A DNA stretch of 64,000 bases, from contig JAIPGM010000001.1 of NCBI GenBank assembly GCA_021735655.1, positions 224,001 to 288,000 of the forward strand, in the 5' to 3' direction. Below are positions 995 to 19,620 of this stretch, in pieces. The stretch comes from Candidatus Omnitrophota bacterium (GTDB taxonomy: Bacteria > Omnitrophota > Gorgyraeia > Duberdicusellales > 4484-171). Position 1 is the stretch's first letter. Every line of letters begins with the position of its first letter. The notes under the pieces were generated by a model. The model was not told where the DNA came from. It saw only the letters and a program-made list of their open reading frames with translations, and ran no database searches. The position numbers and the translations under genes were made by a program.

Positions 995-1288
995 ATGAAA
1001 GCCGACCAGTTAAAGGGCAAGTGCATGACTATTAACGAAGAAATTATTTCTTGGCGAGAGATCGACAAAGAGGTAGTATTTCTTAATAAACAGGAAAAAA
1101 GTTTTTACGAATTAAACAAAACAGCTGAGATCATTTGGCGCCAGTTAGCCAAAGGCGGTAAACTGACTCAGGTAATTTCTCAGGTTCAAAAGAAATATAA
1201 GAAAGTAGGTAAGCAAGACATAGAAAGAGATGTAATTGCTTTTATTGCAGATGGAATTAAGAAAAAAATATTTATTGTTAATAAATAA
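995..1288 (+). CDS. PqqD-family RiPP recognition element (peptide chaperone)
   Basis: 97 aa. The stretch 'FYELNKTAEIIWRQL...KKY...ERDVIAFI' matches the PqqD signature (LNxT..IW..L...Y...ErDv..F). AGGAGG lies 8 nt upstream of the ATG. The stop overlaps the next start as TAATG. Confidence 0.8.
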   Translation: MKADQLKGKCMTINEEIISWREIDKEVVFLNKQEKSFYELNKTAEIIWRQLAKGGKLTQVISQVQKKYKKVGKQDIERDVIAFIADGIKKKIFIVNK

Positions 1289-2442
1289 TGGCTAAGAAAA
1301 AACATTTTCTTCAAAATCCATTTTTTATTATCCAATGGCATATAACTGAACGCTGTAATTGGCAGTGTAAGCATTGCTATCAGGACAAGGCGCCGGTGCC
1401 TGAACTGCCTTTTGGCAAGCTAGAAGGGGTTCTTGGCCAATGTATGGAACTGTTTAAGACTCTAAACGTTCCCGCTAAGCAAGCTTACATGCATATAGGG
1501 GGAGGAGAGCCTTTCTTGCGGAAGGATTTTTTTAAATTCTTAAAGTTGCTGAGCGTGCATAATGATTATTTAAGAATTCAGATAATGACTAACGGCTCAT
1601 TACTTACGCAGTCGGTAGTTAAAGAATTAAAAAGAATGAAGGTGAACGCAGTGCAGGTTAGCTTAGAAGGATTTGAGCAAACTAATGATCAAATAAGAGG
1701 TCCGGGAAGTTTTAATAAGGCTTTGCGGGCTATAGAGTTGCTGATAAAGAACAAAATTTCCACCAGAGTTTCGCTTACCTTGACCAGGATGAATTTAAAC
1801 GAAATAGATGATTTAGCTGTGTATCTTAAAAGCCTCGGGGTCAGGTCTTTTGGAATCCGCAGATACTTTCCTGAAGGAGAAGGTGGGCAGCTGAAGGAGT
1901 TCATGCTTTCGCCTTTAGAAATGAAAGAGTATTATCTTAGGCGTGAGGCTTTGAAGAAAAAATTAGATGTACCGGGAAAATTTTGGGTTTCTAAAGTTTG
2001 TGAAGATGCATGCTATCTAAGCAGTCAGGATCAGTCTTGTCCAAGCTGCGGTATTACTAGAGGATGTCATCTAAATATTTTTACCAACGGCGACATTCTC
2101 GCCTGTAGGCGTTGTCCGATAGTAGTTGGTAATGTATTAAAGGATAGGTTGCTTGATGTTTACTTTTCTTCCGATACCTTGTGGGCTTTGCGGAATTTAG
2201 ATAATGTCAATCCAGAATGTAGGAAATGCACCTATTTCGATAGATGCCTCGGTGGTGCTAAGTGCGAGTCTTATTCTTATTTTAATAATCCATTTGCTCC
2301 TGATCCCCAATGTTTTAGGTTATTTACCGATCTCCCGGATCCACAGAGATATAATAGGCAGGCAGAGAAAATGGAAGTACAAAAGGTTAGTGCTTTTAAG
2401 GGAGAAAAAAAGTTTACGGATGAGATTGAAGATGTGATATAA
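1288..2442 (+). CDS. Radical SAM/SPASM-domain peptide-modifying enzyme
   Basis: CNWQCKHC is a CX3CX2C motif and a GGGEPFLR glycine-rich motif follows. The C-terminal half carries many extra Cys (CPSCGITRGC...CRRC...CRKCTYFDRCLGGAKC) typical of SPASM auxiliary clusters. It is translationally coupled to the PqqD-like gene. Confidence 0.85.
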   Translation: MAKKKHFLQNPFFIIQWHITERCNWQCKHCYQDKAPVPELPFGKLEGVLGQCMELFKTLNVPAKQAYMHIGGGEPFLRKDFFKFLKLLSVHNDYLRIQIMTNGSLLTQSVVKELKRMKVNAVQVSLEGFEQTNDQIRGPGSFNKALRAIELLIKNKISTRVSLTLTRMNLNEIDDLAVYLKSLGVRSFGIRRYFPEGEGGQLKEFMLSPLEMKEYYLRREALKKKLDVPGKFWVSKVCEDACYLSSQDQSCPSCGITRGCHLNIFTNGDILACRRCPIVVGNVLKDRLLDVYFSSDTLWALRNLDNVNPECRKCTYFDRCLGGAKCESYSYFNNPFAPDPQCFRLFTDLPDPQRYNRQAEKMEVQKVSAFKGEKKFTDEIEDVI

Positions 2443-2479: not shown

Positions 2480-2653
2480 ATGGTTAGCCATTCGAAAAAG
2501 AAAAAAGAGAAAAACCAAGACAAAATTGCCTCTTCAGTTGCTGCGTACGAAAAACCTAAGTTTAAAAAAATTAAACTGCTCGATCCCAAAGAGGCAGGCA
2601 TTGCCGGAACTACGGCTGGCTGCGGCTGCTGCGGTTGTTGCTGTTGTTGGTAA
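2480..2653 (+). CDS. Candidate RiPP precursor peptide (57 aa) with a Lys-rich leader and a Cys-rich C-terminal core
   Basis: Not in the ORF track (below 60 aa). AGGAG sits 8 nt upstream of the ATG at 2480. The translation is MVSHSKKKKEKNQDKIASSVAAYEKPKFKKIKLLDPKEAGIAGTTAGCGCCGCCCCW*. It lies directly downstream of the PqqD plus rSAM/SPASM pair. Confidence 0.6.
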   Translation: MVSHSKKKKEKNQDKIASSVAAYEKPKFKKIKLLDPKEAGIAGTTAGCGCCGCCCCW

Positions 2654-2668
2654 TTTTCTAACTTTTGT

Positions 2669-3559
2669 ATGAGTAAATACTACAATGTAGGTTACCCTCT
2701 TGCAGGAGATTGTCGTGGAGTTATCCAAATACGTACTAAAAGTAAATACCTGTGGGACCTCTTGTGTGGTAAATATGCTATGCTTTTTGGCCGTAAGGCC
2801 TTAAGTGGAAACAATGCTATCCGACGAGATTTTTTCATAGATTTTAATTTTATCTCTGATTATCAAGGTTTAGCCAAAAAAAACAAATCTAAATCTTTAG
2901 ATTTTTCTTGCCAGTTTGATAAAAAGTCAATAATTTATAACTTGGTTACCCCTAGGGGGTCCTCATTGGAAATAAACTATTTTAAGCGTTACGCCCAAGT
3001 GGGCTTGATTGAAAAAGATCCGATGATAACTTACTTTGTTGACAGGATGATTCTTTTTACCTATTCGTTAGCTAGAATGTTTATGGTCCATGGTGCTTGG
3101 GTAAAAAGAGGTAAATCTTCATTTTTTCTCATTGGTCGCAGTGGGGTAGGTAAAACAACCATAAGTTCTTTGTTAACCAATCAAAGTAAAGATTACAAAC
3201 TTATGGATGATGACAGTCCGTTTATTTTTCAGGCTGATGACACTTTGTTTGCTGCCTCCAGAGATCAGCGGCTAGTTGAATATTCACCAAATTATTTGTT
3301 TTTTATATCGAAGAAACCGCGCTTAAAGAGTGAAGCCTGCCCTTTAAGTTCTAAAGAGTCATTTAAGAGGTTAATTGAACACTCAGACGTAATTTTTAGA
3401 AAAAATGACCCGATGACCGATTATCGTTTGGATGTCTTAAGGAAATTGGCAATGCGTTGTAAATCATATCTATTGATTAACGGCAAAGATTTGATTGGTA
3501 GCAAAGTTTTGGCTTCTACTTTATTTAATGGTATTATCAAAAGGAGAAAAAATGCGTAG
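2669..3559 (+). CDS. HPr kinase-related P-loop kinase (HprK C-terminal-domain-like)
   Basis: 'HGAWVKRGKSSFFLIGRSGVGKTT' matches the HprK C-domain pattern hG..v...g.GvLi.G.SGvGKSe, which is a Walker A motif. Confidence 0.55.
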   Translation: MSKYYNVGYPLAGDCRGVIQIRTKSKYLWDLLCGKYAMLFGRKALSGNNAIRRDFFIDFNFISDYQGLAKKNKSKSLDFSCQFDKKSIIYNLVTPRGSSLEINYFKRYAQVGLIEKDPMITYFVDRMILFTYSLARMFMVHGAWVKRGKSSFFLIGRSGVGKTTISSLLTNQSKDYKLMDDDSPFIFQADDTLFAASRDQRLVEYSPNYLFFISKKPRLKSEACPLSSKESFKRLIEHSDVIFRKNDPMTDYRLDVLRKLAMRCKSYLLINGKDLIGSKVLASTLFNGIIKRRKNA

Positions 3560-4277
3560 TAAAATTATGTTTTATTTAGGGTTAGCGGTATTTAGTATGC
3601 TTGTTAATATAACAGTGTTCGGTGCAGATATTTCATATCAGGATTTGGTTCAGAGTGCTAAAGATAATTTTGCTTACCAGGTTTCAAATATAAAAAGTAT
3701 TGAGTATAAAGTAGTGGTTTCTGATATTGATGCTGAAACTATTTTATATATAGATGTTTGGGCGAAGTCCCCGGGGAGAGTTAAGGTGAAGCGTTTGGAT
3801 GTTCGTCCTGAGGCAAGCGATGATGGTGAATTCATTTTTGATAAAGGCAAAAGTTGGTCTAATTCTTCGATGGTTCCGGTAGAGATGTATATGGGGATGG
3901 TCGAGCAAGCTTTGTCTGGTGACCTAAGAGGTGGGGCGGTTCTAGAAGAGGAGAGCGGCCTAAGAGAAGTTTCTGGTACAACATATGCAGTAGCTACTTT
4001 ATTGTTTTTCGGAAAGTGTAAGGTAAAGGCATATTATAAGATACCTGATTCCCGCCGACCGGATAAATACGAAGTATTTTTGCTTCAGGGAGATAATTGG
4101 AACAAGTTAATGGATCTAAAACCACAGGATTACCAGGAGGTTGAAGGATCAGTATTTCCCCGCAGGACTGTCCAAACTCTTTATGAGCCCGAAGGCCAAG
4201 AGGAAAGGGTTATGGAGTTTTACAAAATAAAGGTTAATCAGGAAATAGATGACAGTATTTTTCAGATTCCTCAATAA
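3552..4277 (+). CDS. Exported hypothetical protein (N-terminal signal peptide)
   Basis: AAGGAG lies 5 nt upstream of the ATG at 3552. The N-terminus is MRSKIMFYLGLAVFSMLVNITVFGA. The ORF track gives a longer ORF from 3495. Confidence 0.5.
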   Translation: MRSKIMFYLGLAVFSMLVNITVFGADISYQDLVQSAKDNFAYQVSNIKSIEYKVVVSDIDAETILYIDVWAKSPGRVKVKRLDVRPEASDDGEFIFDKGKSWSNSSMVPVEMYMGMVEQALSGDLRGGAVLEEESGLREVSGTTYAVATLLFFGKCKVKAYYKIPDSRRPDKYEVFLLQGDNWNKLMDLKPQDYQEVEGSVFPRRTVQTLYEPEGQEERVMEFYKIKVNQEIDDSIFQIPQ

Positions 4278-4345
4278 ATTTTCTTAACTGCATAGATAGG
4301 ATTTTGTTTATAGCATTATCCTTTTTTTACGTCTTGCCTTTTAAA

Positions 4346-5149
4346 ATGAAGAAAAACTATACAGTATCATTTATCGAAAGCGACAGTATGTGGCCGGTCT
4401 TGAGGCCTTCAGATAAGGTATTGATTAAGGCAGTATCTTCTGCTTCGTTAAGAGTAGGAGATATTATTGTTTATCGGAAAAAAGAATTTTCGGTTGCCCA
4501 CCGGATTGTCCGAGTAGTTAATAATAAGGGGTTTTCCACTTATTGGACCAGAGGTGACTTTAATTATAAGCTCGATCAGGTTTCTACTGAAAATATAATT
4601 GGTAAAATAGCTGGAGTTTATCGTGATGGCCACCTAAAGCCAGTAAGAGGTCCTGGGTGCTGCTGGCTGTTTTTTATTGTGTTTTTAGGGAAAGAGGCTT
4701 CAACCAGGGTTTTGGAAGGAATATATTCTCTTGGGTTTTTTCGTAGTTGGATTAAAAGATTGTTTCCTTTAAAGGTTTCTTATGTCGTGGTGGGGGACAT
4801 AAAAAGCAATGATGATTTTAAAAGCTTTTATCATCGGTCATTTGATTCTTTATGTGAAGGTGGAACTCAGACAGGAATTATGGCTTTGTTTAAGGGTAAG
4901 CCCATAGGTAAACTTTGGATTTTAATTGACAAAGAAGGCAGCTTTTTTTTCTATGGTCCTTATGTAAGGTTGCTTTACCGTGTGAGGGGAGTTGCTGGAG
5001 GATTGATTAAGCAAGCTGTGTGCTATCTTGAAGGCTCTGGTTTAAAAAGGTCTAAAGTGTATGCTTTTACAGGAGGTAGCCGAATCCTGCTCAACTGCTT
5101 TAGCCGAGAGGAAATAGAAGCTAGAGGAGATTTTCCAGATAAACTTTAG
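4346..5149 (+). CDS. Signal peptidase I (S26)-like domain fused to a C-terminal GNAT-like domain
   Basis: 'SDSMWPVLRPSDKVLIK...GDIIVYRK...AHRIVRV' resembles the S26 SM(x)P...GD...KR(v) blocks. The C-terminal 'LLYRVRGVAGGLIKQAV' fits GNAT motif A (R/Q-x-x-G-x-G/A). The ORF track starts at a TTG at 4304. ATG 4346 is preferred. Confidence 0.5.
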   Translation: MKKNYTVSFIESDSMWPVLRPSDKVLIKAVSSASLRVGDIIVYRKKEFSVAHRIVRVVNNKGFSTYWTRGDFNYKLDQVSTENIIGKIAGVYRDGHLKPVRGPGCCWLFFIVFLGKEASTRVLEGIYSLGFFRSWIKRLFPLKVSYVVVGDIKSNDDFKSFYHRSFDSLCEGGTQTGIMALFKGKPIGKLWILIDKEGSFFFYGPYVRLLYRVRGVAGGLIKQAVCYLEGSGLKRSKVYAFTGGSRILLNCFSREEIEARGDFPDKL

Positions 5150-5160
5150 AAGAATTAAAA

Positions 5161-6594
5161 ATGGAACAATTTGACTGTGTTTTAATCCATCATTCCGGGC
5201 CGGGCCCTAATGCTAAGCATATTGCTCCTAATGTCTCGATGGGTGTATTTGCTTTGGCAGATATTTTGCAGAGAAACGGCTACAGGACTGAAATAATTCA
5301 TTTAGGCATAGAAGAATATCTTGATAATAGTTTTTCTTTGGCCAGATATTTAAGAGTTAAAAAGCCATTATTGGTTGGAGTTACTTTGCATTGGCATTTA
5401 CAATGCTCTAAAACCGTAGGCTTAGTTAGAAGTATAAAAAAAATAGTTCCTGGCGTTAAAGTTATTTTAGGAGGTTATACGGCAAGCTTTTTTGCCGATC
5501 AAATAATGCCTGAAGTTAAGGAAGTTGATTTTATTATTAGAGGTGATGCTGAGAAACCTCTGCTGGAGTTGATGCGACAGTTAAAAGACGGCCATTTTGA
5601 CTTAAGTTCTGTGCCGAATCTTACTTGGCGTAGAGCCAAAAAGGTAATACATAACAAGCAGAGTTATGTAGCAAAAAAGGAGGATCTTGATCAGTTAAAT
5701 TTCTCTAATTTTAAACTTATGAAAAATAGTCAGTTTTATTTAGGTTCATTAGCTAAAATTTACCAGTCAGTGCAGGATACAGAAACATACAATCTTCTTA
5801 AACTGAATCCTTTTTATCTTTCTGTTGGTCGAGGCTGTCGGTTTAATTGTCTGTTTTGCGGTGGATCGGCAATGGCGCAGAAATTAATTAACAACCGAAA
5901 TAATTTAGTTTTTCGTTCTTCCAAAAAAGTCATCTCTACCATTAAAGACGCTTTTCGAGAAGGAGTAGATACTTTTTGTATTTGTTTTGATCCTAATCTT
6001 GACAAATCTTATTATTTTGATTTATTTCAGTCTATCCGCAAAAATAGAATAAAAATTTCAATGATGTTTGATTGTTGGTCTTTGCCATCATTTGAGTTCA
6101 TTGATGCATTTGCTAAGACTTTTCAAGATGGAAAACATAGTAGCTTAGCCTTATCTCCAGAAACCGGTTCTGAGCGCTTACGAAAAAAGTATAAAGGTTC
6201 ATTCCATACTAACCAGGAATACTTTGAGGTATTTCGTTATTTACGGGCAAAAGGCATAAAATGTGTTGTGCAGTTTGGCTATATATTTCCGGGTGAAAGC
6301 ATGGTAGATTTTAAGAAGACTAGTGACTTCATTGAAACCACCAATGAAATTTTTAAAGGACGAGTGCTTGTAATTATAAATAAATGCGTGATTGACCCGG
6401 CTTCTTTGTTTTATATGTTTCCGAAAAAGTATAAAATAACCAGAAAAGCGGTTAGCTTCTCTGATTATTGTAGATTAGATCCCTGGAAGAGCTATTCTTT
6501 TTTTCCCGCCCAGCAAAAGAAAATGAAAGCTGTTTTAAAGATGTGGCAAAAGGTTGAGGCTCTTCAGTTATTGGATATTGCTGATCCGATCTGA
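5161..6594 (+). CDS. B12-binding-domain radical SAM enzyme (class B rSAM)
   Basis: The N-terminal region looks like a cobalamin-binding Rossmann domain (VKVILGGYTAS...DFIIRGDAE). This is followed by 'LSVGRGCRFNCLFCGG', which carries CX3CX2C. Confidence 0.8.
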   Translation: MEQFDCVLIHHSGPGPNAKHIAPNVSMGVFALADILQRNGYRTEIIHLGIEEYLDNSFSLARYLRVKKPLLVGVTLHWHLQCSKTVGLVRSIKKIVPGVKVILGGYTASFFADQIMPEVKEVDFIIRGDAEKPLLELMRQLKDGHFDLSSVPNLTWRRAKKVIHNKQSYVAKKEDLDQLNFSNFKLMKNSQFYLGSLAKIYQSVQDTETYNLLKLNPFYLSVGRGCRFNCLFCGGSAMAQKLINNRNNLVFRSSKKVISTIKDAFREGVDTFCICFDPNLDKSYYFDLFQSIRKNRIKISMMFDCWSLPSFEFIDAFAKTFQDGKHSSLALSPETGSERLRKKYKGSFHTNQEYFEVFRYLRAKGIKCVVQFGYIFPGESMVDFKKTSDFIETTNEIFKGRVLVIINKCVIDPASLFYMFPKKYKITRKAVSFSDYCRLDPWKSYSFFPAQQKKMKAVLKMWQKVEALQLLDIADPI

Positions 6595-6613: not shown

Positions 6614-7774
6614 TTAAAAAATCATCTTGAAAATGTGTTTTATAAGTCTATAGGGTATATAGAAAATTCTTAGGTGGTATTTTCTAGCTGTTGTTACACA
6701 ACGTTGGGGCAGAGAATAATACTTAGCAAATTGTTCCTGTGGTACGGTTAAAATGTATTTTAAGGGGTAGCTTATGGTGTCGTAATAGATAAATTGACAG
6801 AGGGTGTAGATATAAGGTAGATTTTCCATTCTTACTGGGGTGTAGGTAAAGCGCTGCACGATAGAAGATATTAAATATTTTTGCCAACCAGGCACTTTAA
6901 GTTTTTTCAGGAAAAATTTAAGGTCGACATCCAAAACGAATTGCATTTGATATAATAGAAGGTAGAGGCTTGCTTTGGCTTTTTCTTGTTCAGCTGCCTT
7001 TAAGATATATTCCCAGTTAAGATTTTCCTCTTTTAGGATAATCCCCAAGTCACAAATGTATTTTAAATTAAGTATTTTTCCGAACCGTCGCTGATGTAAG
7101 GCAAGGCTTAGAATAGTGTCTTCGGCGCTTAAAGCTCTAAAGGAGTATCCTGGGCCTTGGATTAGGCGCAGGCGATTCCATGCATCAGGCAATACTTTTT
7201 GCTTAAAGCGATTGCAATCTAAAGCCCAGTGCAGTTCGACTAGTGTAGCTTGGCCATTAGTTTCTTTAGTGAAAGAGAGGTGACATTGGTGCTTTCGCCA
7301 GTAAGCTTCGTCAGATCCGAGAAATTCCTTTTTATAGCCCATGGCCAGAAGAAGAAAAGTTGCTTTTTCAAAGTTTTTTTCAGTGGTGAACAGGTCTATG
7401 TCTGATGAAGGACGTATCCCAAAATGCTTGTAGTATTTATCAGGCAAAGAAAAGCCCTTAATCGGAATAATTAGGGTATCGGATTTTTCCGCTTCTTTGA
7501 GTATATTTGATAATTCAATACATAGATTTTCATGGTTAAAAATTTTTAAGCAATAAAACTTTTTATAAAGTTGTTCAAAGCCTTTCGGTATCGGGTATGA
7601 ATTTTCTTTAAGTATAACCTGAAGAAAGTGAGGTAGCTCATGGTAAAAAATAGCATAACCTAGGTTTTTTCCGTGTATGTTTTCTGCTTTGAGGCTTTTT
7701 AGGAGTAGATCACGTTGGTTTCCATAGACTATTTCCTTCGCTAGGTATTTGATTATTTTTTCTTCAGTTTTCAT
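6614..7774 (-). CDS. Nucleotidyltransferase-fold protein (NTP_transf_5/PF14907-like)
   Basis: 'GFSLPDKYYKHFGIRPSSDIDLFT' fits the nucleotidyltransferase motif hG[GS]...DhDh. The start was chosen at CAT 7772-7774 (MKTEEKII...) to avoid an 86-nt overlap. The ORF track extends it to 7882. Confidence 0.5.
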   Translation of the reverse strand: MKTEEKIIKYLAKEIVYGNQRDLLLKSLKAENIHGKNLGYAIFYHELPHFLQVILKENSYPIPKGFEQLYKKFYCLKIFNHENLCIELSNILKEAEKSDTLIIPIKGFSLPDKYYKHFGIRPSSDIDLFTTEKNFEKATFLLLAMGYKKEFLGSDEAYWRKHQCHLSFTKETNGQATLVELHWALDCNRFKQKVLPDAWNRLRLIQGPGYSFRALSAEDTILSLALHQRRFGKILNLKYICDLGIILKEENLNWEYILKAAEQEKAKASLYLLLYQMQFVLDVDLKFFLKKLKVPGWQKYLISSIVQRFTYTPVRMENLPYIYTLCQFIYYDTISYPLKYILTVPQEQFAKYYSLPQRCVTTARKYHLRIFYIPYRLIKHIFKMIF

Positions 7775-7796
7775 CTTGTAGTAATTAAACTTAGTA

Positions 7797-8843
7797 TTAT
7801 AAAAATAAAGGATAAATGGTTTTGCCCGGGCATTCTTCCGGACAGGATTTTCCTTTACGAAAGGTCCGGTATTTTTCTCCATACCATATATCCTTAAAAG
7901 ATAACTTATTTATATTTCCGAGTGATTTTTTTTCGGCATAAACACAACCTAAGACTTCACCTTCTAAAGTTATAACTGATTGAACCCAAGACAGATAGCA
8001 GGGTTTTTGTTTAGTCTGGCTTTGAATTTTCTGAGGTATTTTGTTACCACTGGCAAAATTTAAGAAACTTTTAATATTGTTGGGAATTTTTATCTTACTG
8101 GAAATGCTTGAGATTTTTTCCACGAATTCTTCCTGCTCAGACTCCGGAGGAATAAGTCTTTTATTTAGTTCCGGAGTCATAAGTAGAGGTTTAAACAGCA
8201 GCTTATCTGCCGATAATTTCTGGCTAAGAGCGATCATCTCGGCAGCATTGTGGTAATTAAGATTAGATATTACGTTTACCAGAAACAAGAGAGGGTATCG
8301 TTTTTTGCCTTTTAGGGACTTTATCAGGAAGAGATTGTTTAATAAAGTATTGAAATCTTTTTTGTTTCTGGAGGGCCTGATCCTTTGGAAAGTTTCAGCA
8401 TCCGCGCAATGAAGACTTACCAGAATTTTTTTTACACCCTTTTCTATTAGCTTGGCTATATTAGTTTTATCAAGATAAAAGGCATTGGTCATTAGCTCAA
8501 CATTGATTTTTTGCTCACCGGCTATGCTTATAAGTTTAAACAGATCGGGATGCATTAGTGGTTCACCTTCTCCGGTAAATAAAATAGTGTTTACCTGAAG
8601 GGTTTTTAATTGCTTAACCAGGGCAGAAAATGTATCACAGGAGATATGCTGATCCGGTTTTTTTTTGGATATCGCCCCTGAATGATACCAACACATTTCG
8701 CAAGCCATGTCGCATTTATTGGTTATATCAAGAGTTATCTTAAGCGGTCCGGTAAAAGCTCTGCTTCGGGAAAGTATTCCTAGGAGGCGGAGCATATTGT
8801 GAGAATTTGAAAGATAGTGTAGATTGTTTTTTAACGAAAACAT
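7797..8843 (-). CDS. Radical SAM/SPASM enzyme, family B paralog
   Basis: 'ITLDITNKCDMACEMCWY' carries CX3CX2C and a GEGEPLMH motif follows. The C-terminus has a SPASM-like pattern (KPCYLS...GEVLGCVYAE...GNINKLSFKDIWYG...CPEECPG). An alternative start at 8795 (MLRLLG) matches the paralog N-termini. Confidence 0.8.
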   Translation of the reverse strand: MFSLKNNLHYLSNSHNMLRLLGILSRSRAFTGPLKITLDITNKCDMACEMCWYHSGAISKKKPDQHISCDTFSALVKQLKTLQVNTILFTGEGEPLMHPDLFKLISIAGEQKINVELMTNAFYLDKTNIAKLIEKGVKKILVSLHCADAETFQRIRPSRNKKDFNTLLNNLFLIKSLKGKKRYPLLFLVNVISNLNYHNAAEMIALSQKLSADKLLFKPLLMTPELNKRLIPPESEQEEFVEKISSISSKIKIPNNIKSFLNFASGNKIPQKIQSQTKQKPCYLSWVQSVITLEGEVLGCVYAEKKSLGNINKLSFKDIWYGEKYRTFRKGKSCPEECPGKTIYPLFL

Positions 8844-11518: not shown

Positions 11519-13081
11519 ATGAAAGCCTTATCTAGCAAGAAGCATTTTATAGTAATTTCATTGATAATGATTTTGTCTTTTCATTTTATAAATAACTTTA
11601 TATGGCTGGCAATTGACGATACTCCGGACGGGGTTGACACTGCTTGGCATTTGATAGAGGCCGCAAAATTCCAGATATTGTTTAGGGGGATATCAGAATC
11701 CAAACAATCGTTATTTAGTAAGATAAAACAAATGTTTTATACGTTTAGAGAAGGGAGCGGCCATATAGCTTGGCCGCCACTTATCTATCTTATTTCTTGG
11801 TTATTGGTCCCTTCTCACTTTTCGCTTTTTTCAATCAGGCTGTATGTAGATTTTTTATTTTTTTCCTTGTTGATAATTTCTGTATATTTTTTAGGGAAGA
11901 AGATTTTTAACAAAAAGACTGGTTTGCTGGCTGCTTTTTTGATAAGTTTTTATCCTTCTGTTTATTTTTCTTCTCGGCAATTTGGACTAGACCTACCGTT
12001 GACAACTTTCACGGCTTTGTGTACTTGTTTTATTTTGTATTCTGAGAGTTTTTCCCGGAGAGGCTACTCTTTGTTGTTTGGCTTAAGTCTGGGCCTCGCG
12101 ACTTGGGCTAAGCTGCAGATAGCTTTTTTCCTGCTGGTGCCATTATGCTGGGAAACTTTTAAAATATTTTCTAAAGCTGTGGAAAAAAAATCCAAATCAT
12201 TGTTTAACTTGATTCTTAGCTTGGCGGTAACATTTATTTTATTTTGGGTATATTGGGGTTCTAAGCTTCAATCAGCCTGGGTAAGCTTTTGTGAGTACGC
12301 TACGTTTCTTTATCCTTCTTTTAAGAACAATTTGTTTATTTTAAGCGAACCGGAAATACCGATATTTAGTATAAGTAATATGTTTTTTTACCCGTCTCAG
12401 ATGCTAAACTACACATCTTGGGTTCTTTTTGCCTTATTCGTAATTGCCTTGATATTATCCTGGCGATACAAAATGAAACGAAGAGGCTTCTTCTTAGCAA
12501 GTTTGATTGTGCCTTATCTTATTTATACTTTTATATCTATGAAATGGGCACGTTACACATTGCCGTTTCTTGTATTCATTGCTTTAATTTCTGCTTGGTC
12601 AATTGATAGTCTTAGGCGTAAATACTTAAAGAAATTTATGTTGAGGGGAATAATTATTTATTGCCTAGGAGTTTTTTTCATAATATCTTGGGTAATTCCT
12701 TACAATAAAACACCTTTTTTCTGCGGAGATTTTTTCGGGTATCATCTTCCTTATTTTCGTCCGCCGGCTTTTGATGCTTACGCTGAAACAGTTAGCGAGA
12801 AAGGAATCATTAACGACATTAAGGGTAAAATCAGCGGTAGCGAGGAAGTAACCATAAGCTATAATAATCACGGAGCCCGCACAGTGCTCGTTTTTTACGA
12901 CATTTTTAGTGACTATATTTTGTCTGGTAAAATAAACTTACGAAGGGACGATGAGCTAAGTTTTTCTGATGCCGACTATATAGTTTTAGGAAATCAGGAT
13001 TGGTTTGAAAAAAAAGATATTCTAAAAAAATATAAGGTTTTGTCTAAGTTGAAAGAAGAAACAGTTTTGTTTAAGGAGTAA
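11519..13081 (+). CDS. GT-C-like polytopic membrane glycosyltransferase (ArnT/PMT-like)
   Basis: It is a multi-pass membrane protein. The first loop has an acidic motif (IDDTPDGVDTAWH) and there is a large C-terminal soluble domain. Confidence 0.5.
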   Translation: MKALSSKKHFIVISLIMILSFHFINNFIWLAIDDTPDGVDTAWHLIEAAKFQILFRGISESKQSLFSKIKQMFYTFREGSGHIAWPPLIYLISWLLVPSHFSLFSIRLYVDFLFFSLLIISVYFLGKKIFNKKTGLLAAFLISFYPSVYFSSRQFGLDLPLTTFTALCTCFILYSESFSRRGYSLLFGLSLGLATWAKLQIAFFLLVPLCWETFKIFSKAVEKKSKSLFNLILSLAVTFILFWVYWGSKLQSAWVSFCEYATFLYPSFKNNLFILSEPEIPIFSISNMFFYPSQMLNYTSWVLFALFVIALILSWRYKMKRRGFFLASLIVPYLIYTFISMKWARYTLPFLVFIALISAWSIDSLRRKYLKKFMLRGIIIYCLGVFFIISWVIPYNKTPFFCGDFFGYHLPYFRPPAFDAYAETVSEKGIINDIKGKISGSEEVTISYNNHGARTVLVFYDIFSDYILSGKINLRRDDELSFSDADYIVLGNQDWFEKKDILKKYKVLSKLKEETVLFKE

Positions 13082-13091
13082 GCAGTAGATT

Positions 13092-14288
13092 ATGTTTTTG
13101 TTTCTTTCGTTGTTGCCTTTAATGGTTGTGTTTTATTGGTTCGGCCTGCCCCGAAAGTGGCGAAGCTTATTTTTATTTGCAATGAGCCTTGTGTTTGCCG
13201 CGTCCATTAGCTTAAGGTATACGTTCTATTTTCTTTTCAATATAGTGATAGTTTATGTCGGCGGAGCCTCAATGCGTAAAACCGACAAAAGAAAAAAAAT
13301 TATTCTTAAATTGTTATTAGTTTGGCTGGTTGGTAATATCTGCTTTTTCAAATACATTGGTCTACTAGCTGTTAGCATGTCGAGGATATCTTGGTTTGCA
13401 TCAATGCCAAAAATACCAATGCCGGGGATAGTTTTACCTTTAGGAATTTCTTATATAATATTCAGGCTCATACATTACATTGTTGAGGTTTATAGAAGGA
13501 ATATGCCCGAGAGTTCCTTTAGTGATTTCGGACTATATATTTTATTCTTTCCGACATTTTTAGCTGGTCCGGTTGAAAGATTTCATAATTTTCATTCCCA
13601 AACTAGAGCCCAGAAAAGTATTTCCGCGGGCACCAGCCTTGGCGATATCAATTACGGATTATTTCGCATTATTTGCGGTATGGTTAAGAAATTCATTATC
13701 GGCGATAGTTTAGCAAGATTGATAATGCCGTTGCTTAATTCACCGCAGAATTATTCGCGTTTGCTGGTGTTGGTGTCTATATACGGTTTAGCTGTACGAA
13801 TCTATATGGATTTCTCAGGTTATACTGACATGGCTATTGGAATAGCTAGATTGTTTGGATACCGGATTGTTGAGAATTTTAAAAAGCCCTTTTTTCAAAA
13901 AAATATAGCTTTATTTTGGAGAAATTGGCATATATCAGTGTATACCTGGATAAGAGATTATTTCTTTTTTCCATTTTTCGGCCATCGGGCTTCCAGTGTA
14001 AAAGTTTATGCTGGCGTGTTTTTTTCTATGCTTGTATTTATGTTATGGCACGGAGGAAACTTTAATTTTTTTATTTTAGGAATTTATCATGGCTTGGGTC
14101 TTTTAACCTGGTATGGGTTTCAGGAGATAAAAAGAAAACATCCTGCGATTCGTCGCTTGACCGTCAAGCCTTATCTGGACCCGTTGGCTATTTTTTTTAC
14201 ATTTAGTTTTGTAAGTTTCGGTTTTATTGTTTTCGCTTTGGACATTAATTGTGCAAAGGCTATTTTACAAAGAGTATTTTTTGTTTAG
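13092..14288 (+). CDS. MBOAT-family membrane-bound O-acyltransferase (DltB/AlgI-like)
   Basis: 'FWRNWHISVYTWIRDYFFFP' matches the MBOAT 'WRRWHISLSTWLRDYLY' block, including the catalytic His. Confidence 0.8.
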   Translation: MFLFLSLLPLMVVFYWFGLPRKWRSLFLFAMSLVFAASISLRYTFYFLFNIVIVYVGGASMRKTDKRKKIILKLLLVWLVGNICFFKYIGLLAVSMSRISWFASMPKIPMPGIVLPLGISYIIFRLIHYIVEVYRRNMPESSFSDFGLYILFFPTFLAGPVERFHNFHSQTRAQKSISAGTSLGDINYGLFRIICGMVKKFIIGDSLARLIMPLLNSPQNYSRLLVLVSIYGLAVRIYMDFSGYTDMAIGIARLFGYRIVENFKKPFFQKNIALFWRNWHISVYTWIRDYFFFPFFGHRASSVKVYAGVFFSMLVFMLWHGGNFNFFILGIYHGLGLLTWYGFQEIKRKHPAIRRLTVKPYLDPLAIFFTFSFVSFGFIVFALDINCAKAILQRVFFV

Positions 14289-14307
14289 CTAAAAAAAGGA
14301 GTCACAA

Positions 14308-14544
14308 TTGAAGGACAAAATAAGAAACTTTATCATTAGCAATTTTATGTTTGATGAGGGTAGTTTAGGAGATGATGATTTACTATTTGAGACAGGGATC
14401 ATAGATTCTATGGGATTTATCAAACTGCTCGCTTTCATTGATAAGACATTTAATCTATCTATGGATATGAGTGAAATAAGCATCGATAATTTTAATACTT
14501 TAAACAATATTGTTAAGAGCTTAGAGCGTAAGATTAATAGGTAA
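14308..14544 (+). CDS. Acyl/peptidyl carrier protein (DltC-like)
   Basis: 78 aa. 'GIIDSMGFIKLLAFI' is the DSx phosphopantetheine-attachment motif. Confidence 0.7.
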   Translation: MKDKIRNFIISNFMFDEGSLGDDDLLFETGIIDSMGFIKLLAFIDKTFNLSMDMSEISIDNFNTLNNIVKSLERKINR

Positions 14545-14571
14545 TTATTTTATAAAAAGGAGATTCGGAAT

Positions 14572-15717
14572 ATGAATTTTTCCTGGAGTAAAAATCAAGA
14601 AGAACTCAAAAGGGCGGCAACAAAATTTGCGGCGGCCAAACTCAATGATGATATTATTCAAAGGGACAAGAACGGTAAATTTTCCTTAGACGGCTGGAAG
14701 GCCTGCGCTGACTTTGGTCTCCAGGGCATGTTAATGCCCAAAAAGTATGGTGGATTGGGATTTGGGTTACTTGATATAGTAGCTATCTTGGAAGGTATAG
14801 GCTACGGATGTAAAGATAATGGACTTATATTTTCAATCAATGCCCATATTTGGGGGGCAGAGGCGCCGATTTATCATTTTGGTACAGAAACCCAGAAGAA
14901 AAAATTACTTCCCGGTTTTTGTAACGGTAGCTTAATTGGGGCAAATGCAATGACTGAACCCGGTTCAGGTTCGGATGTCTATTCCCTTAGAACTACCGCT
15001 GTTAAAAAGAATAATTATTACACTTTGAACGGAACCAAGATCTTTGTCACCAATGCCCCTTTGGCTGATATATTTATTGTTTACGCTCGTACCGCTAAGT
15101 CTCGAGGATTCTCCGGTTTATCTTGCTTTTTAGTCGAGAAAGGTACCAAGGGATTAGTTATAGGTGAAAATTTCGAAAAAATGGGGCTTAGGACCAGTCC
15201 GATGTCGGAAGTGATTTTTAATAATTGTAAGATACCGAAAAACAATTTAGTCGGTCAAAAAGGTTCAGGAGCCTTGGTTTTTAATGATAGCATGGAATGG
15301 GAAAGGGTTTTTATTTTAGCTAATTGTGTAGGTATTATGGATCGCCAGCTGAAATATTGCATAGAATACGCAAATTCCAGAAAGTTGGATACCAAGCCAA
15401 TCGGTAAATACCAATCCGTAGCCAATAAGATTGTAGATATCCAGTCGAACCTTGAAGTAAGCCGCTTGCTTCTTCATAAGGCCGCTTGGCTTAAGAGCTG
15501 CAAAGAATCGGCATCAATGGCTTCAGCAATGACAAAATTGTATCTTAGCGAAGCTTATATTAAAAGTATTCGCTGTGTCATGGATATCTTTGGTGGATAT
15601 GGATATATGACTGAGTATGAATTGGAGCGCGAATTGAGAGATGCTCTAGCGAGCACTGCCTATTCGGGAACATCGCAGATACAAAAAAATATCATTGCCG
15701 GTCTTAGCGGATTATAA
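14572..15717 (+). CDS. Acyl-CoA dehydrogenase family flavoenzyme
   Basis: 'GANAMTEPGSGSDV' is the ACAD signature. The C-terminal helical domain ends '...YSGTSQIQKNIIAG'. Confidence 0.8.
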   Translation: MNFSWSKNQEELKRAATKFAAAKLNDDIIQRDKNGKFSLDGWKACADFGLQGMLMPKKYGGLGFGLLDIVAILEGIGYGCKDNGLIFSINAHIWGAEAPIYHFGTETQKKKLLPGFCNGSLIGANAMTEPGSGSDVYSLRTTAVKKNNYYTLNGTKIFVTNAPLADIFIVYARTAKSRGFSGLSCFLVEKGTKGLVIGENFEKMGLRTSPMSEVIFNNCKIPKNNLVGQKGSGALVFNDSMEWERVFILANCVGIMDRQLKYCIEYANSRKLDTKPIGKYQSVANKIVDIQSNLEVSRLLLHKAAWLKSCKESASMASAMTKLYLSEAYIKSIRCVMDIFGGYGYMTEYELERELRDALASTAYSGTSQIQKNIIAGLSGL

Positions 15718-15718
15718 T

Positions 15719-17302
15719 ATGGAATACCGATTACCGACATTATTGCGGCAAAGCGCAAAGAGTCAACCTTTTAAAGTTGCCATTAGACAGGGCGAAGAAG
15801 AACTTTCATATGAAGATTTGAATTTGTTGAGTGATAAGTTGGCCTCTTGCTTAGTCGATAAAGGCCTAAAGGTTGGCGACAGAGTAGGAATATATATAGA
15901 TAAATCGATTGATGCTGTTATTGCTATATTTGGTATTTTAAAATCGGGCGGTTGTTATGTTTCTTTGGATCCTTTGGATAATTCCCGGAGGCAGACCTTA
16001 ATTGTTAAGGATTGTTCATTGAAATATTTGATTTCTTCTTCAAAAAAGTTACCATCTCTGGTTAAAATAATACGCGGTATAGATAGTCTAGAGTATATAT
16101 TTGTAGTTGACGCCAACAAAAAAGAAAGTAGCAGGGATTGGTGCGACATTAAGATGGTTTTTAAAAAGGAGATATTTAATTCAGATGTTAGCATTTCCCC
16201 AAGGTCGAGAAGATTAAAAGACAACAACTCGGCATATATACTTTATACTTCTGGTTCAACCGGAAAACCCAGAGGAGTAGAGATTAGTCATCGGGCTTCA
16301 CTTGCTTTCATAAATTGGGCCAATAAGTATTTTAATATTACTAAAGCCGACATTGTGGCGGCTCAGTCTCCGTTTCATTTCGACCTTTCCATTTTTGATA
16401 TTTTCGTCAGCATAAAGGCCGGCGCGACCATTTGTATTGTTCCTCAGTCTTTATCAATTTTTCCTAAATCTTTGGCAGATTTTATCGAGAGCCAGAAAAT
16501 TAGCACTTGGTATTCTACACCTTCGGTTTTAATCAAGCTTCTTTACTACGGTAATCTTCAGAAAAGGAATTTATCAGCCCTAAAAAGAATTATTTTCGCC
16601 GGTGAGGTATTTCCCCCAAAGCATCTGCATAAGCTAATGAAGATATTGCCGGGAGCTAAATACTATAATTTATACGGACCTACCGAAACGAATGTCTGTA
16701 CTTGTTATTTTTTAAAGCGTATTCCTAAGGTAGATAAACCGATCCCGATAGGGTGTCCTTGTCGCGGCCAATATATTTTCATAGTTGATAAGGCTGGCAA
16801 TCTTGTTAAAAACGGTCAATCGGGCGAATTATGTGTTAGCGGACCCACACTTATGCAGGGATACTGGAATAATTCTCAGGCAACCGAGAAAGCTATGATT
16901 AAGCTCAATTTTTTAAATAAAGCCAGTAAGGTATATAGAACTGGTGATTTGGCCAAAATTAGAAAAAACGGAGATATTCTTTATTGTGGCCGTAATGATG
17001 AAATGTTAAAGGTAAGGGGATATCGGGTTGAGCCGGCTGAAATTGAAGCAGTTTTGCATTCATGTCCGGGAATAAAAGAAGCAGCTGTGGTAGGAGTCTC
17101 AGCTGATGCAGCTGGGGACAGAATCAAAGCCGTGATTAGCCTAAAAACTAACTATTCTGTTTCTGAGAGTAAGGTAAAGCTTTTTTGTTCCAGGCAGTTG
17201 CCTTCCTATATGGTTCCTGCGGAAATATTTTTTAAAAAGTCGTTACCTCGGCTTTCTACCGGAAAAATTGATAGGAAGAAATTGAAAACAATTCGAAGAT
17301 GA
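15719..17302 (+). CDS. Adenylate-forming enzyme (AMP-dependent ligase, DltA/NRPS A-domain-like)
   Basis: Core adenylation motifs are present: 'YILYTSGSTGKPRGVEISH', 'YGPTE', 'YRTGDL' and 'GRNDEMLKVRGYRVEPAEIE'. ATG 15719 is preferred. The ORF track starts at 15695. Confidence 0.85.
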   Translation: MEYRLPTLLRQSAKSQPFKVAIRQGEEELSYEDLNLLSDKLASCLVDKGLKVGDRVGIYIDKSIDAVIAIFGILKSGGCYVSLDPLDNSRRQTLIVKDCSLKYLISSSKKLPSLVKIIRGIDSLEYIFVVDANKKESSRDWCDIKMVFKKEIFNSDVSISPRSRRLKDNNSAYILYTSGSTGKPRGVEISHRASLAFINWANKYFNITKADIVAAQSPFHFDLSIFDIFVSIKAGATICIVPQSLSIFPKSLADFIESQKISTWYSTPSVLIKLLYYGNLQKRNLSALKRIIFAGEVFPPKHLHKLMKILPGAKYYNLYGPTETNVCTCYFLKRIPKVDKPIPIGCPCRGQYIFIVDKAGNLVKNGQSGELCVSGPTLMQGYWNNSQATEKAMIKLNFLNKASKVYRTGDLAKIRKNGDILYCGRNDEMLKVRGYRVEPAEIEAVLHSCPGIKEAAVVGVSADAAGDRIKAVISLKTNYSVSESKVKLFCSRQLPSYMVPAEIFFKKSLPRLSTGKIDRKKLKTIRR

Positions 17303-17421
17303 AAAAAAACCATAAAACACTCATGGTAACAATTGTTCTCTGTGGTATTATATTTATAATCAGCTATATTTTATATTTTTTTATAAAGCCTCCGCTTGAA
17401 TTTATATATCAACAATTCTAG
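17299..17421 (+). CDS. DltX-like 40-aa membrane micropeptide
   Basis: Not in the ORF track. Its ATG overlaps the stop of the adenylation gene as ATGA. The translation is MKKNHKTLMVTIVLCGIIFIISYILYFFIKPPLEFIYQQF*. It has one transmembrane segment, and its C-terminal FIYxxF motif resembles my recollection of the DltX C-terminus (FIYNEF-like), which needs checking against a DltX model. Confidence 0.45.
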   Translation: MKKNHKTLMVTIVLCGIIFIISYILYFFIKPPLEFIYQQF

Positions 17422-17452
17422 GATGGCGAATCTTTTTTAAAGGCATGCTATT

Positions 17453-18748
17453 ATGAAGGATTACAATAAGGAGTCTCTTTTTACTGCAGCTGGAAAGTTT
17501 ATTTTTGGCACAGGTATCATCTTTTTACTGCTTTTTTTATTTTATCAGAAGTCATTAATTCTGTCTTTAGATCCTAATCCAAATTTGTCTGAAATTACAG
17601 TTGAGAAAATAAAACTTACCAGGCTTTATTTATTATCGATATCTTTGGTGTTGATTTTCATATCAGGGGCAGCAAAGATGTTGCCGGTTTTTAACCGTTA
17701 TATAAATCGAATAATGGCAATTAAACCAGTGCGGTATTTTTTGTTGATAATGCTGCCGATAGTTATTTTCGAACTATACTTTCAACCTTTAGCTTTGCAA
17801 AAACCGACAATTTTAATGCGGGATGATGATTTAATCTGGAAATTACGGCCAAATAGCGAATCTATATGGGCTGAAGCGATAGTAAAGATAAATTCCAAAG
17901 GCTTAAGGGGTCCCGAGTTAGATTACGCTAAACCGGCTGATACAAAAAGAATCCTTTATTTGGGCGATTCTATAACTTTTGGTTTTAGCTTGAAAAGCTA
18001 CGATCAAACATTTCCCTGTCAGGTTGAGGAAATTTTAGAGGAAGATAATAATAGAAAAGTTGAAACAATAAATGCCGGTGTGGGCGGTTATTCTCCCTGG
18101 CAGGAATATATCTATTTATCAAAAGAAGGTATTAACTATGATCCGGATTTAGTTGTAGTCGCTTTTACCTTAACCGATGTTAGTGAGAAGCTTGGCTTGA
18201 GACGATTCGGCGGCGACAGCGAAGGGGCTCAGCTGGCAGCTTCGGCTATTACGATATTTGATTGGTTAAGTAACAAAAGCCGCATTTTATATTTCATAAA
18301 GGAGGCGGTTACTAACCTAAGATTCAACGGCGATATTGAAAAAATGGTACCGGTTGAAGAAGGGCTTAAAATTACCCAGCTAATAGATGAAGCAAACGAT
18401 CCGGACATTAAAAATGCATGGGAGATTACCTTAAATAATCTTGGTAAAATATTCGATTTTTGTAAAAGTGGAAATGTCCCGGTAATATTAGTTATTTTTC
18501 CGGTAGCGTCTCAATTTGATGATGTTGAGAACATGTCAGGGCCACAACTTTTTGTGAGCAGGTTTGCTAGTAAAAAAAATGTTCTGTCATTGGACTTGCT
18601 GCCTTTGTTATCTCAGAGAGTCAAAAATAAAAAAGTAGACCTAGAAGATTATTTTTTGGGTCCACTTCACTTATCAGCTGAGGGAAATAAGGTAGTTGCT
18701 GAATTAATAGCTGACTTTATTAAGGAAAGTAATATTTTATATTTTTGA
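17453..18748 (+). CDS. Membrane-anchored SGNH/GDSL hydrolase-fold protein (DltD/AlgX-like)
   Basis: An N-terminal transmembrane helix is present. The GDS block is 'ILYLGDSITFGF', the Gly block is 'NAGVGGYS', and the C-terminal region has a DxxH-like motif. Confidence 0.6.
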   Translation: MKDYNKESLFTAAGKFIFGTGIIFLLLFLFYQKSLILSLDPNPNLSEITVEKIKLTRLYLLSISLVLIFISGAAKMLPVFNRYINRIMAIKPVRYFLLIMLPIVIFELYFQPLALQKPTILMRDDDLIWKLRPNSESIWAEAIVKINSKGLRGPELDYAKPADTKRILYLGDSITFGFSLKSYDQTFPCQVEEILEEDNNRKVETINAGVGGYSPWQEYIYLSKEGINYDPDLVVVAFTLTDVSEKLGLRRFGGDSEGAQLAASAITIFDWLSNKSRILYFIKEAVTNLRFNGDIEKMVPVEEGLKITQLIDEANDPDIKNAWEITLNNLGKIFDFCKSGNVPVILVIFPVASQFDDVENMSGPQLFVSRFASKKNVLSLDLLPLLSQRVKNKKVDLEDYFLGPLHLSAEGNKVVAELIADFIKESNILYF

Positions 18749-19620
18749 CTTTTATCAAAATGAGTAAAACCTTAAATATTGAAGATTTGGATAGGGCTGT
18801 ACTTAGGAAATTGGAAACTCTGCAGAGTATTTTTTCTGATATGGGAAGTGCTTTAATAGCCTATTCCGGAGGTGTAGATAGCACGCTTTTAACCAAGGTG
18901 GCCAAGGATGTTCTAAAAAGTAAGGCGGTTGCTGTGACTTCAGAGTCAGAAACTTATCCTTTACGGGAATCAAGGCAGGCTAAGGAATTGGCAAGGCAGC
19001 TGGGAATAAGGCATATTATTATTAATACCCGTGAACTAGATAATGAAGAGTTTTCTAAAAATTCACCTCAAAGATGTTATTTTTGCAAAAAAGAATTGTT
19101 TTCCAGACTTTTGGATTTAGCAAAACAGCATAGTTTAGATTATGTTGTTGAGGGCTCAAATCACGACGATCGGTCTGATTATCGGCCGGGCCTAAAGGCA
19201 ATAGAGGAACTAGGCATAAGAAGTCCTTTAAAAGAAGCCGAGCTAACCAAGAAAGAAATCAGAATACTTTCGAAGATGTTCGGTTTAAGCTCTTGGAATA
19301 AACCGTCTTTTGCCTGCCTATCTTCAAGATTCCCTTACGGAACTAAAATAACCAAAGATGGATTAATAAAGGTTGATCGGGCTGAGGGGGTGTTGCTTAA
19401 ATTTGGCTTTAGCCAGTTAAGAGTAAGAATACATGGGCCAATAGCAAGGATAGAGGTTCCCAAGGAAGATATTTCTTTATTTTTTAAGGCTGGTTTGTCA
19501 GACAGAGTTGTTGAAGAATTTAAAAAAATCGGTTTTTTCTATGTAACTTTAGATTTGGCAGGTTATGAAACTGGCAGTATGAATAAGCTGCTTAAGAGCG
19601 AGGATAAATTTGGATACTAA
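18745..19620 (+). CDS. larE: LarE-family ATP-dependent sulfur transferase (PP-loop)
   Basis: 'ALIAYSGGVDSTLL' is the PP-loop motif. Conserved Cys are present (CYFCKKELF, CLSSRFPYG). It sits directly upstream of larB and larC homologs. Confidence 0.75.
   Translation: MTFIKMSKTLNIEDLDRAVLRKLETLQSIFSDMGSALIAYSGGVDSTLLTKVAKDVLKSKAVAVTSESETYPLRESRQAKELARQLGIRHIIINTRELDNEEFSKNSPQRCYFCKKELFSRLLDLAKQHSLDYVVEGSNHDDRSDYRPGLKAIEELGIRSPLKEAELTKKEIRILSKMFGLSSWNKPSFACLSSRFPYGTKITKDGLIKVDRAEGVLLKFGFSQLRVRIHGPIARIEVPKEDISLFFKAGLSDRVVEEFKKIGFFYVTLDLAGYETGSMNKLLKSEDKFGY

Follow-up and report, generated by a model that had tools for sequence, protein, structure and literature searches.

We describe a gene whose product joins a signal-peptidase-fold domain of family S26 to a GNAT acetyltransferase-fold domain. 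It lies in a 64,000-nucleotide stretch of DNA from a Candidatus Omnitrophota bacterium (assembly GCA_021735655.1, contig JAIPGM010000001.1, positions 224,001 to 288,000; hereafter the window, numbered from its first letter), inside a cassette that resembles those for peptides made on the ribosome and modified after translation (RiPPs). The open reading frame (ORF) at 4346..5149 is a real gene, and we are nearly certain of both the fusion architecture and its membership in the cassette. We propose that the protein is a bifunctional RiPP-like tailoring enzyme that combines a dedicated leader peptidase with acylation of the released core, a reading for which we judge the chances to be evenly balanced. 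Taken by itself, the S26 domain is probably the dedicated leader peptidase of the cassette, as its sequence and its analogy with known systems suggest. That the GNAT domain specifically caps the newly formed N-terminus is a more tentative proposal drawn from the fusion itself and from its sequence relatives, and we place it somewhat short of an even chance. The gene and its parts are arranged as follows.

4346..5149, forward strand: S26(Ser/His)-GNAT fusion gene, 267 aa
4358..4645, forward strand: S26 signal-peptidase-fold domain, residues ~5-100
4385-4387 (AGT), forward strand: codon of the predicted catalytic Ser14
4499-4501 (CAC), forward strand: codon of the predicted catalytic His52
4556-4558 (GAC), forward strand: codon of Asp71 in the GD box
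4652..4762, forward strand: two long amphipathic helices joining the domains, residues 103-139
4772..5131, forward strand: GNAT acetyltransferase-fold domain, residues ~143-262
4979-4996, forward strand: GNAT motif A, R212-V-R-G215-V-A217

Residues 7-90 match the NCBIfam model TIGR02228, which describes signal peptidase I of the archaeal and endoplasmic reticulum (ER) type, at E 3.9e-17 and above its cutoff (62.6 bits against 51.85). Models of SipW and of bacterial signal peptidases scored lower than TIGR02228 and under their own cutoffs (TIGR02227, 26.1 bits against 47). In comparisons with the PDB, the single sequence aligned with SEC11A/C, and the family profile returned SEC11C at 2.3e-12 and SEC11A at 2e-11. 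In the alignment to SEC11, Ser14 ('SDSMWP') falls on the serine of 'SGSMEP', His52 ('AHRIV') on 'VHRV', and Asp71 ('RGDFN') on 'KGDNN'; we take the catalytic residues of SEC11A to be S56, H96 and D116. Among 30 family members, S14 is retained in each of the 23 sequences spanning that position, and H52, R53 and the G70-D71 pair are each retained in 28 of 28. The box D residue is thus His in 28/28 sequences, not the Lys of the bacterial S26A/LepB dyad. The Ser/Lys dyad on which an initial annotation of this DNA had staked its protease assignment is literally absent, yet the enzyme class stands: judged by its alignments, the protease is of the ER/archaeal Ser/His(/Asp) type (S26B, SEC11/SipW-like) rather than the bacterial Ser/Lys type. 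The best structural match of the domain is the non-catalytic SipA, and Foldseek also matched it to the LexA C-domain. Given the full conservation of Ser, His and Asp, the domain looks catalytically competent, unlike SipA, and we ruled out a degenerate, non-catalytic SipA-like domain on the same grounds.

Public gene calls disagree on where the protein begins. The longest ORF, 4304..5149 on the forward strand, opens with TTG and adds 14 amino acids to the product of the ATG at 4346. The NCBI copy (MCF7907325.1, from a Candidatus Omnitrophota metagenome-assembled genome, MAG) uses the TTG at 4304, is 281 aa long and is named 'signal peptidase I', whereas gene call P0001 on a 129,842-bp Logan contig is identical to the 267-aa product of ATG 4346. 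We favor the ATG, because homologues begin a few residues ahead of the 'G-x-S-M-[FWY]-P' box. Neither start supplies a transmembrane (TM) anchor, as the TTG-extended N-terminus holds only ~12 hydrophobic residues. Moreover, the TIGR02228 match opens at position 34 of the 158 in the profile, from which we take the anchor region to be missing. In the 267-aa protein, no 19-residue window reaches a Kyte-Doolittle value of 1.6 (maximum 1.34), and the hydrophobic stretch CCWLFFIVFLG in the linker is under the length of a TM span; a few homologues are borderline in hydropathy (1.6-2.0). With this low maximum and charged linker helices, a TM-anchored topology that places the S26 domain outside and the GNAT domain inside, on either side of the linker helix, was ruled out. 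The protein is therefore predicted from its sequence to be cytoplasmic, or peripherally associated with the membrane. Set against the features of S26B enzymes, it has the beta-barrel-like protease fold and the Ser/His/Asp boxes and is devoid of the N-terminal TM anchor. We predict that it works like an S26B signal peptidase but falls outside the topological definition of that family, being anchor-less and not outward-facing. The initial annotation had asked whether the true start would turn the protein into a housekeeping LepB; the absence of the N-terminal anchor from either start speaks against this, and together with the fused GNAT domain and the conserved synteny described below it rules out a housekeeping LepB or SipW.

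The C-terminal half was assigned by fold and by motif. The target alone matches Pfam Acetyltransf_1 at E 0.018, and among the homologues 23 of 30 match that family (best 4e-18) and 22 of 30 match Acetyltransf_7. A single-sequence AlphaFold2 model (predicted local distance difference test score, pLDDT, 37.7) was not used. In the alignment-based model used instead (pLDDT 88.8; predicted template modeling score, pTM, 0.77), an S26 beta domain (~5-100) is followed by the helices at 103-139 and then, at residues ~143-262, by a GNAT-like beta/alpha/beta domain. The alpha/beta fold of the GNAT superfamily is accompanied by its motif A (Q/R-x-x-G-x-G/A, the loop that binds the CoA pyrophosphate), with R212 conserved in 28/30, G215 in 22/30 and A217 in 27/30 sequences. 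By modeled fold and motif A, the C-terminal half is a member of the GNAT superfamily. Profiles, homologue alignment and model thus agree with the initial annotation that an S26-type N-terminal half is fused to a GNAT-like C-terminal half, and the R-x-x-G-x-A acetyl-CoA-binding-like motif that it had picked out is conserved across the 30 members. When the family profile was used, the best PDB matches of the C-domain were N-alpha-acetyltransferases (Naa50 at 9.5e-10, RimI at 5.5e-9, Naa30 and Ard1). The RimI model TIGR01575 is matched by 7/30 members, under its cutoff where compared (P0027, 38.2 against 86.4 bits), and has no match in the target; among NCBIfam GNAT models, RimI is matched most often, tied with the generic PRK03624. 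One family member matches HaaN, a model of a RiPP N-acetyltransferase, at 1.2e-6. Public annotation of the family names one half per protein, as in P0154 ('GNAT family N-acetyltransferase') and P0027 ('RimI-like'), and no record that we examined names both.

The fusion recurs, and it does so in company. A word-indexed homologue search returned only the protein itself and one S26-only relative; an exhaustive HMMER search was used, which yielded 2,020 proteins at E<=1e-3, most of them matching over the S26 domain alone. Both halves were matched by ~28 full-length representatives (clusters at 50% identity, 245-317 aa, from metagenomes). We examined every fusion locus with enough flanking DNA, and a related-locus search with a 10-sequence alignment gave 2+2 loci. 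In the window, the genes around the fusion are the following.

995..1288, forward strand: PqqD-family protein, the likely leader-recognition element
1288..2442, forward strand: radical S-adenosylmethionine (SAM)/SPASM enzyme; its closest NCBIfam model is the ACGX-system radical SAM enzyme, under cutoff
2480..2653, forward strand: candidate precursor peptide of 57 aa; its leader box is AAYEKPKFKKIKLL, its Cys-rich tail GTTAGCGCCGCCCCW
2669..3559, forward strand: HprK/ScmC-like P-loop protein with the Walker A motif GRSGVGKTT
3552..4277, forward strand: LolA-like protein whose N-terminus resembles a signal peptide (weak Pfam LolA_like match, E 1.2e-3)
5161..6594, forward strand: B12-binding radical SAM enzyme, TIGR04190-like, under cutoff
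6614..7774, reverse strand: PF14907 (NTP_transf_5) nucleotidyltransferase-family protein
7797..8843, reverse strand: second radical SAM/SPASM enzyme

The longest ORF of the PF14907 gene (6614-7882, reverse strand) overlaps the radical SAM/SPASM gene upstream of it by 86 nt; the Met at 7774, and not 7882, is its probable start, because homologues align from residue ~35. The LolA-like gene, between the HprK-like gene and the fusion, had no counterpart when seven loci were searched using the proteins of the window, and its membership in the cassette is uncertain.

Radical SAM genes stand beside the fusion in six loci with adequate flank and one partial locus, and PF14907 genes in those six loci and one short contig. 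In five loci (the window, L002, L005, L008/L010 and L012), PqqD is present as well, together with an HprK/ScmC-like P-loop protein and a small ORF for the precursor. In L002/L003/L004 (an NCBI Omnitrophica MAG) and L005/L006 (JGI), the cassette runs in the order PqqD, radical SAM, the small ORF, a ScmC(PF27840)-like gene, S26-GNAT and PF14907 (NTP_transf_5). In L008/L010, the cassette genes are rearranged around the fusion and share 45% (first radical SAM enzyme), 48% (PF14907) and 48% (PqqD) identity with those of the window. In L012, six or seven radical SAM genes accompany the fusion, as do PF14907, a PqqD-like ORF and a ScmC-like protein of unusual length. L014 repeats the right-hand side of the window (radical SAM/SPASM, fusion, then PF14907 and radical SAM/SPASM on the reverse strand); its modifying enzymes are present, and no PqqD was recognized there. 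In L013 the fusion is followed by PF14907, and in L007 by a radical SAM gene, with which the contig ends. The partner that recurs most constantly is PF14907, being adjacent, at most two genes away, or fused to the S26 module in 10/10 loci with usable flank. The conserved synteny upholds the placement of the gene in a RiPP-like operon, and the search for the same fusion next to radical SAM/PqqD pairs in other genomes, which the initial annotation had suggested, succeeded in four of the loci above (L002, L005, L008/L010 and L012).

The small ORFs adjoin radical SAM/ScmC-like genes in five independent loci and share a leader box and a Cys-containing tail. The window's peptide (...AAYEKPKFKKIKLLDPKEAGIAGTTAGCGCCGCCCCW) carries the leader box Y-E-K-P-K-F-K-K-I-K-L and ends in GCGCCGCCCCW. 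Its counterparts lie at 7845-7997 (reverse strand) in L008 (...KVYQKPKIKRVVYKKKKLPVAIAQSCALCV), at 8965-9123 in L002 (MIKKPYQKPEIKEVKLV...GCSRCRATYRTS), at 8954-9112 in L005, where the peptide closely resembles that of L002, and at 12601-12813 (reverse strand) in L012 (...KKYFNPEVTKIKLEPEQAVLSCC...). Aligned across the five loci, the leader box reads Y-x-K/N-P-x-h-x-x-h-K-L, and its Tyr and Pro as well as two C-terminal Cys are invariant. As far as sequence tells, these peptides are built like RiPP precursors, with a leader to be read by PqqD and a core at the C-terminus. None of the five small ORFs matches a Pfam family, and against NCBIfam, even at E<=10, the peptides found no relevant family, the sole match being a chance-level Sec61beta (E 0.15). 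Directly ahead of the Cys-rich tail, the peptides of the window and L008 (n=2) have a G/A-I-A motif in keeping with the -3/-1 small-residue rule; cleavage possibly occurs after it, although the rule is too permissive to count as evidence of a cleavage site.

The S26 module is not confined to GNAT fusions. It occurs in three other fusion types with the same boxes, a similar trailing helix and 34-41% identity to the target domain (38-41% in the ABC fusion and 34-39% in the others). In P0030 (737 aa; 5969-8182 of L015 and 1471-3684 of L016), it forms the N-terminus of an ABC exporter within a cassette of PqqD, ScmC-like, S26-ABC and PF14907 genes; its 10-kb contig yielded no precursor carrying the leader box. 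In P0059 (L017, 237-1928), P0128 and P0140, it forms the C-terminus of PF14907, beside radical SAM, PqqD and ScmC genes. In P0079 (L019, 1049-2122), it is joined to a SAM methyltransferase, directly after a PF14907 gene. The unfused S26-only relative P0002 sits after an HprK-like gene. By analogy, the presence of S26-ABC, S26-PF14907 and S26-methyltransferase fusions in the same type of cassette argues strongly for a leader-peptidase role.

These arrangements suggest a sequence of events. The PqqD protein would bind the leader box of the precursor, while the radical SAM/SPASM, B12-binding radical SAM, HprK-like and PF14907 enzymes would modify its Cys-rich core. After or alongside these modifications, the cytoplasmic S26 domain, through Ser14, His52 and Asp71, would remove the leader of the precursor encoded at 2480-2653. 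The fused GNAT domain would then transfer an acyl group, from acetyl-CoA or a different acyl-CoA, to an amine of the core thus freed; the simplest acceptor would be the new alpha-amino group. Such an alpha-amine acceptor is plausible, resting on the logic of the fusion, on N-alpha-acetyltransferases as the best profile matches and on the matches to the RimI and HaaN models. In this scheme the substrate, the cleavage site and the acetylation target are those that we infer.

The scheme can be compared with known enzymes and gene clusters. With ER and archaeal signal peptidases I (MEROPS S26B: SEC11A/C, archaeal signal peptidase I and Bacillus SipW), the protein shares the fold and the SM-P, GDI, HR and GD-N boxes. 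By contrast, it lacks an N-terminal or a convincing C-terminal TM anchor, carries a GNAT domain, and is tied genomically to a peptide cassette rather than to general secretion. A small, dedicated S26 enzyme has a precedent in SodX, the maturation protease of nickel superoxide dismutase, which removes the N-terminal propeptide of one substrate. The SodX model (TIGR02754) gave weak matches (E 1.8e-3 for the target; 5/30 members at E<=1e-3); however, the score is under cutoff, the substrate and context differ, and no acetyltransferase is fused to SodX.

Lasso peptide clusters pair their leader protease, B2, with the PqqD-like B1. Both this pair and the peptidase-containing ABC transporters (PCATs), with their C39 domain, resemble our cassette in coupling a dedicated protease to leader binding by PqqD or a RiPP recognition element, and in the S26-ABC sister protein the S26 domain sits where C39 sits in PCATs. 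The difference is one of protease fold and mechanism: PCATs and lasso B2 use a Cys protease, here replaced by a Ser/His S26 enzyme. The cassette differs from the lasso clusters of paeninodin and pseudomycoidin in having neither a lasso cyclase nor a B2 protease, and the S26 module would, by analogy, fill the B2 slot.

Cleavage and capping by one polypeptide is the strategy of PilD, which cleaves and N-methylates prepilins, and which the S26-methyltransferase sister fusion recalls; PilD, however, is an aspartic membrane protease. MdnD and GodH are GNAT enzymes that N-acetylate RiPPs after leader removal, but the known RiPP GNATs (MdnD, GodH and HaaN) stand alone. The cassette's PqqD, radical SAM/SPASM, ScmC/HprK-like P-loop and PF14907-type genes are reminiscent of Haft's SynChlorMet (Scm) and HprK-related cassettes. 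In the window, the scores against NCBIfam were 21.6 bits for ScmD (cutoff 100), 105 for ScmE (400), 84.9 for ScmF (400) and 16.2 for HprK_rel_A (200), and an L002 neighbor scored 33.7 for HprK_rel_B (200) and 18.8 for ScmC (125). As all scores against these models (TIGR04248-04251 and TIGR04352/04355) are far under cutoff, the cassette is related to those systems rather than a member of them. We take PsmN, an NTP transferase of the pseudomycoidin cluster, to be a PF14907 member. In that pathway, the HprK-type kinase PsmK phosphorylates the C-terminal Ser of the precursor, and PsmN, otherwise uncharacterized, attaches one or more hexoses to the phosphate (PMC6993621). Because PsmK and PsmN tailor a lasso precursor (PMC6993621), the constant partners of the S26 module resemble known peptide-tailoring enzymes. 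In the library that we searched, we found no paper describing an S26-GNAT fusion or this cassette, in accord with the initial annotation, which knew of no such fusion in characterized RiPP pathways. The combination is built from known kinds of enzyme and is not a new principle.

Several observations weigh against cleavage followed by N-terminal capping. The cassettes usually lie within glycan loci of the cell envelope: the cassette of the window is followed by GT2, two PMT_2 glycosyltransferases and MBOAT, and Poly_export, GNVR/Wzc, Wzy_C, glycosyltransferases and ABC-2 transporters surround it in L002/L003/L004 and L005/L006. The GNAT domain is dispensable in the sister cassettes, where an ABC exporter, PF14907 or a methyltransferase takes its place as the fusion partner of the S26 domain, and the GNAT family also matches models of other subfamilies (PaiA, AAC and dTDP-amino-sugar acyltransferases). 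The residues predicted to become N-terminal vary among the loci. All four points would suit an S26 leader peptidase whose GNAT partner acts elsewhere, acylating a side chain, an amino sugar or a glycan (on the peptide or from the locus), or inactivating the intracellular product for self-protection, as the GNAT domain of MccE does with processed microcin C. We regard this alternative as unlikely, though deserving of real weight: the simplest explanation of a fusion to a protease is that the two domains act in turn on a single substrate, and the top solved relatives of the family profile are N-alpha-acetyltransferases.

The precursor itself was not recognized in L014 or L015, a further point against the proposed role in leader removal. 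This gap, the tight linkage of PF14907, which exceeds that of any other gene, and the structural match to LexA together raise the question of whether the S26 module acts with PF14907 on another substrate than the small precursor, be it cleavage and activation of a partner protein or a LexA-like self-cleavage that regulates the GNAT domain. We consider this improbable. The active site is of the Ser/His signal-peptidase-like type, whereas self-cleaving S24 proteins use Ser/Lys, and where the S26 domain heads an ABC exporter, as its N-terminal part, the layout is that of leader-cleaving PCAT transporters. Furthermore, if PsmN is of the PF14907 type, as we assume, the linkage to PF14907 is itself a linkage to peptide maturation. 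An ordinary SipW/archaeal-type signal peptidase I that serves secretion of envelope or matrix proteins and carries an incidental C-terminal half would account for the TIGR02228 score, for the NCBI name and for the secreted LolA-like protein encoded immediately upstream, but is very hard to reconcile with a protein that has no TM-like segment anywhere, a fused GNAT fold of a family that uses cytoplasmic acyl-CoA, and a conserved synteny with the peptide cassette rather than with the LolA-like gene, and we give it almost no credence.

Should the leader-peptidase assignment prove true, a soluble Ser/His protease of signal-peptidase fold, joined in modular fashion to domains for capping, decoration or export, would be a new class of RiPP protease. 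To our knowledge, leader peptidases dedicated to RiPPs belong to the Cys (C39, lasso B2), subtilisin-like, prolyl-oligopeptidase or metallo classes. When cryptic RiPP clusters are expressed, it is often leader removal that is missing. The combination of S26 module, PF14907, PqqD and ScmC-like genes would also provide a sequence handle for mining an uncharacterized peptide family in candidate phyla, and the half-annotations in public MAGs ('signal peptidase I', 'GNAT family N-acetyltransferase') would be corrected. A broader generalization, which we find doubtful as a whole, is that the anchor-less Ser/His S26 module is the dedicated leader peptidase of the entire PqqD/ScmC-HprK-like kinase/PF14907/radical SAM cassette family in Omnitrophota and other uncultured bacteria. 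It would plug in for 'cleave-and-cap' (GNAT, methyltransferase), 'cleave-and-export' (ABC) and 'cleave-and-decorate' (PF14907) reactions, and the Cys-rich, possibly phospho-glycosylated products would belong to the cell envelope or to the glycan machinery and would not be antibiotics in the classical sense. Such a modular anchor-less leader peptidase in a candidate-phyla peptide family may be a more useful outcome than the single fusion.

Three minor observations concern the surroundings of the cassettes. The ScmC-like protein of L012 (9600-11354, reverse strand) has 584 aa and is thus twice as long as usual, owing its length to a C-terminal extension. Another recurrent gene encodes a TPR/FlmR_OhkR_N-domain protein; it lies in L002 (6332-7612), L005 (6217-7611) and L019 (2115-3599, beside the S26-methyltransferase fusion), and is absent from the first 9 kb of the window. 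Past the glycosyltransferases of the window, the forward strand of 13092-21534 encodes MBOAT, an acyl-CoA dehydrogenase, an AMP-binding acyl-activating enzyme, a GDSL hydrolase, a PP-loop ATPase (LarE/Asn-synthase-like) and a full-length nickel-insertion protein (PF01969, E 2.6e-143); this region may combine an acylation module with a gene set for a nickel-pincer (Lar-like) cofactor.

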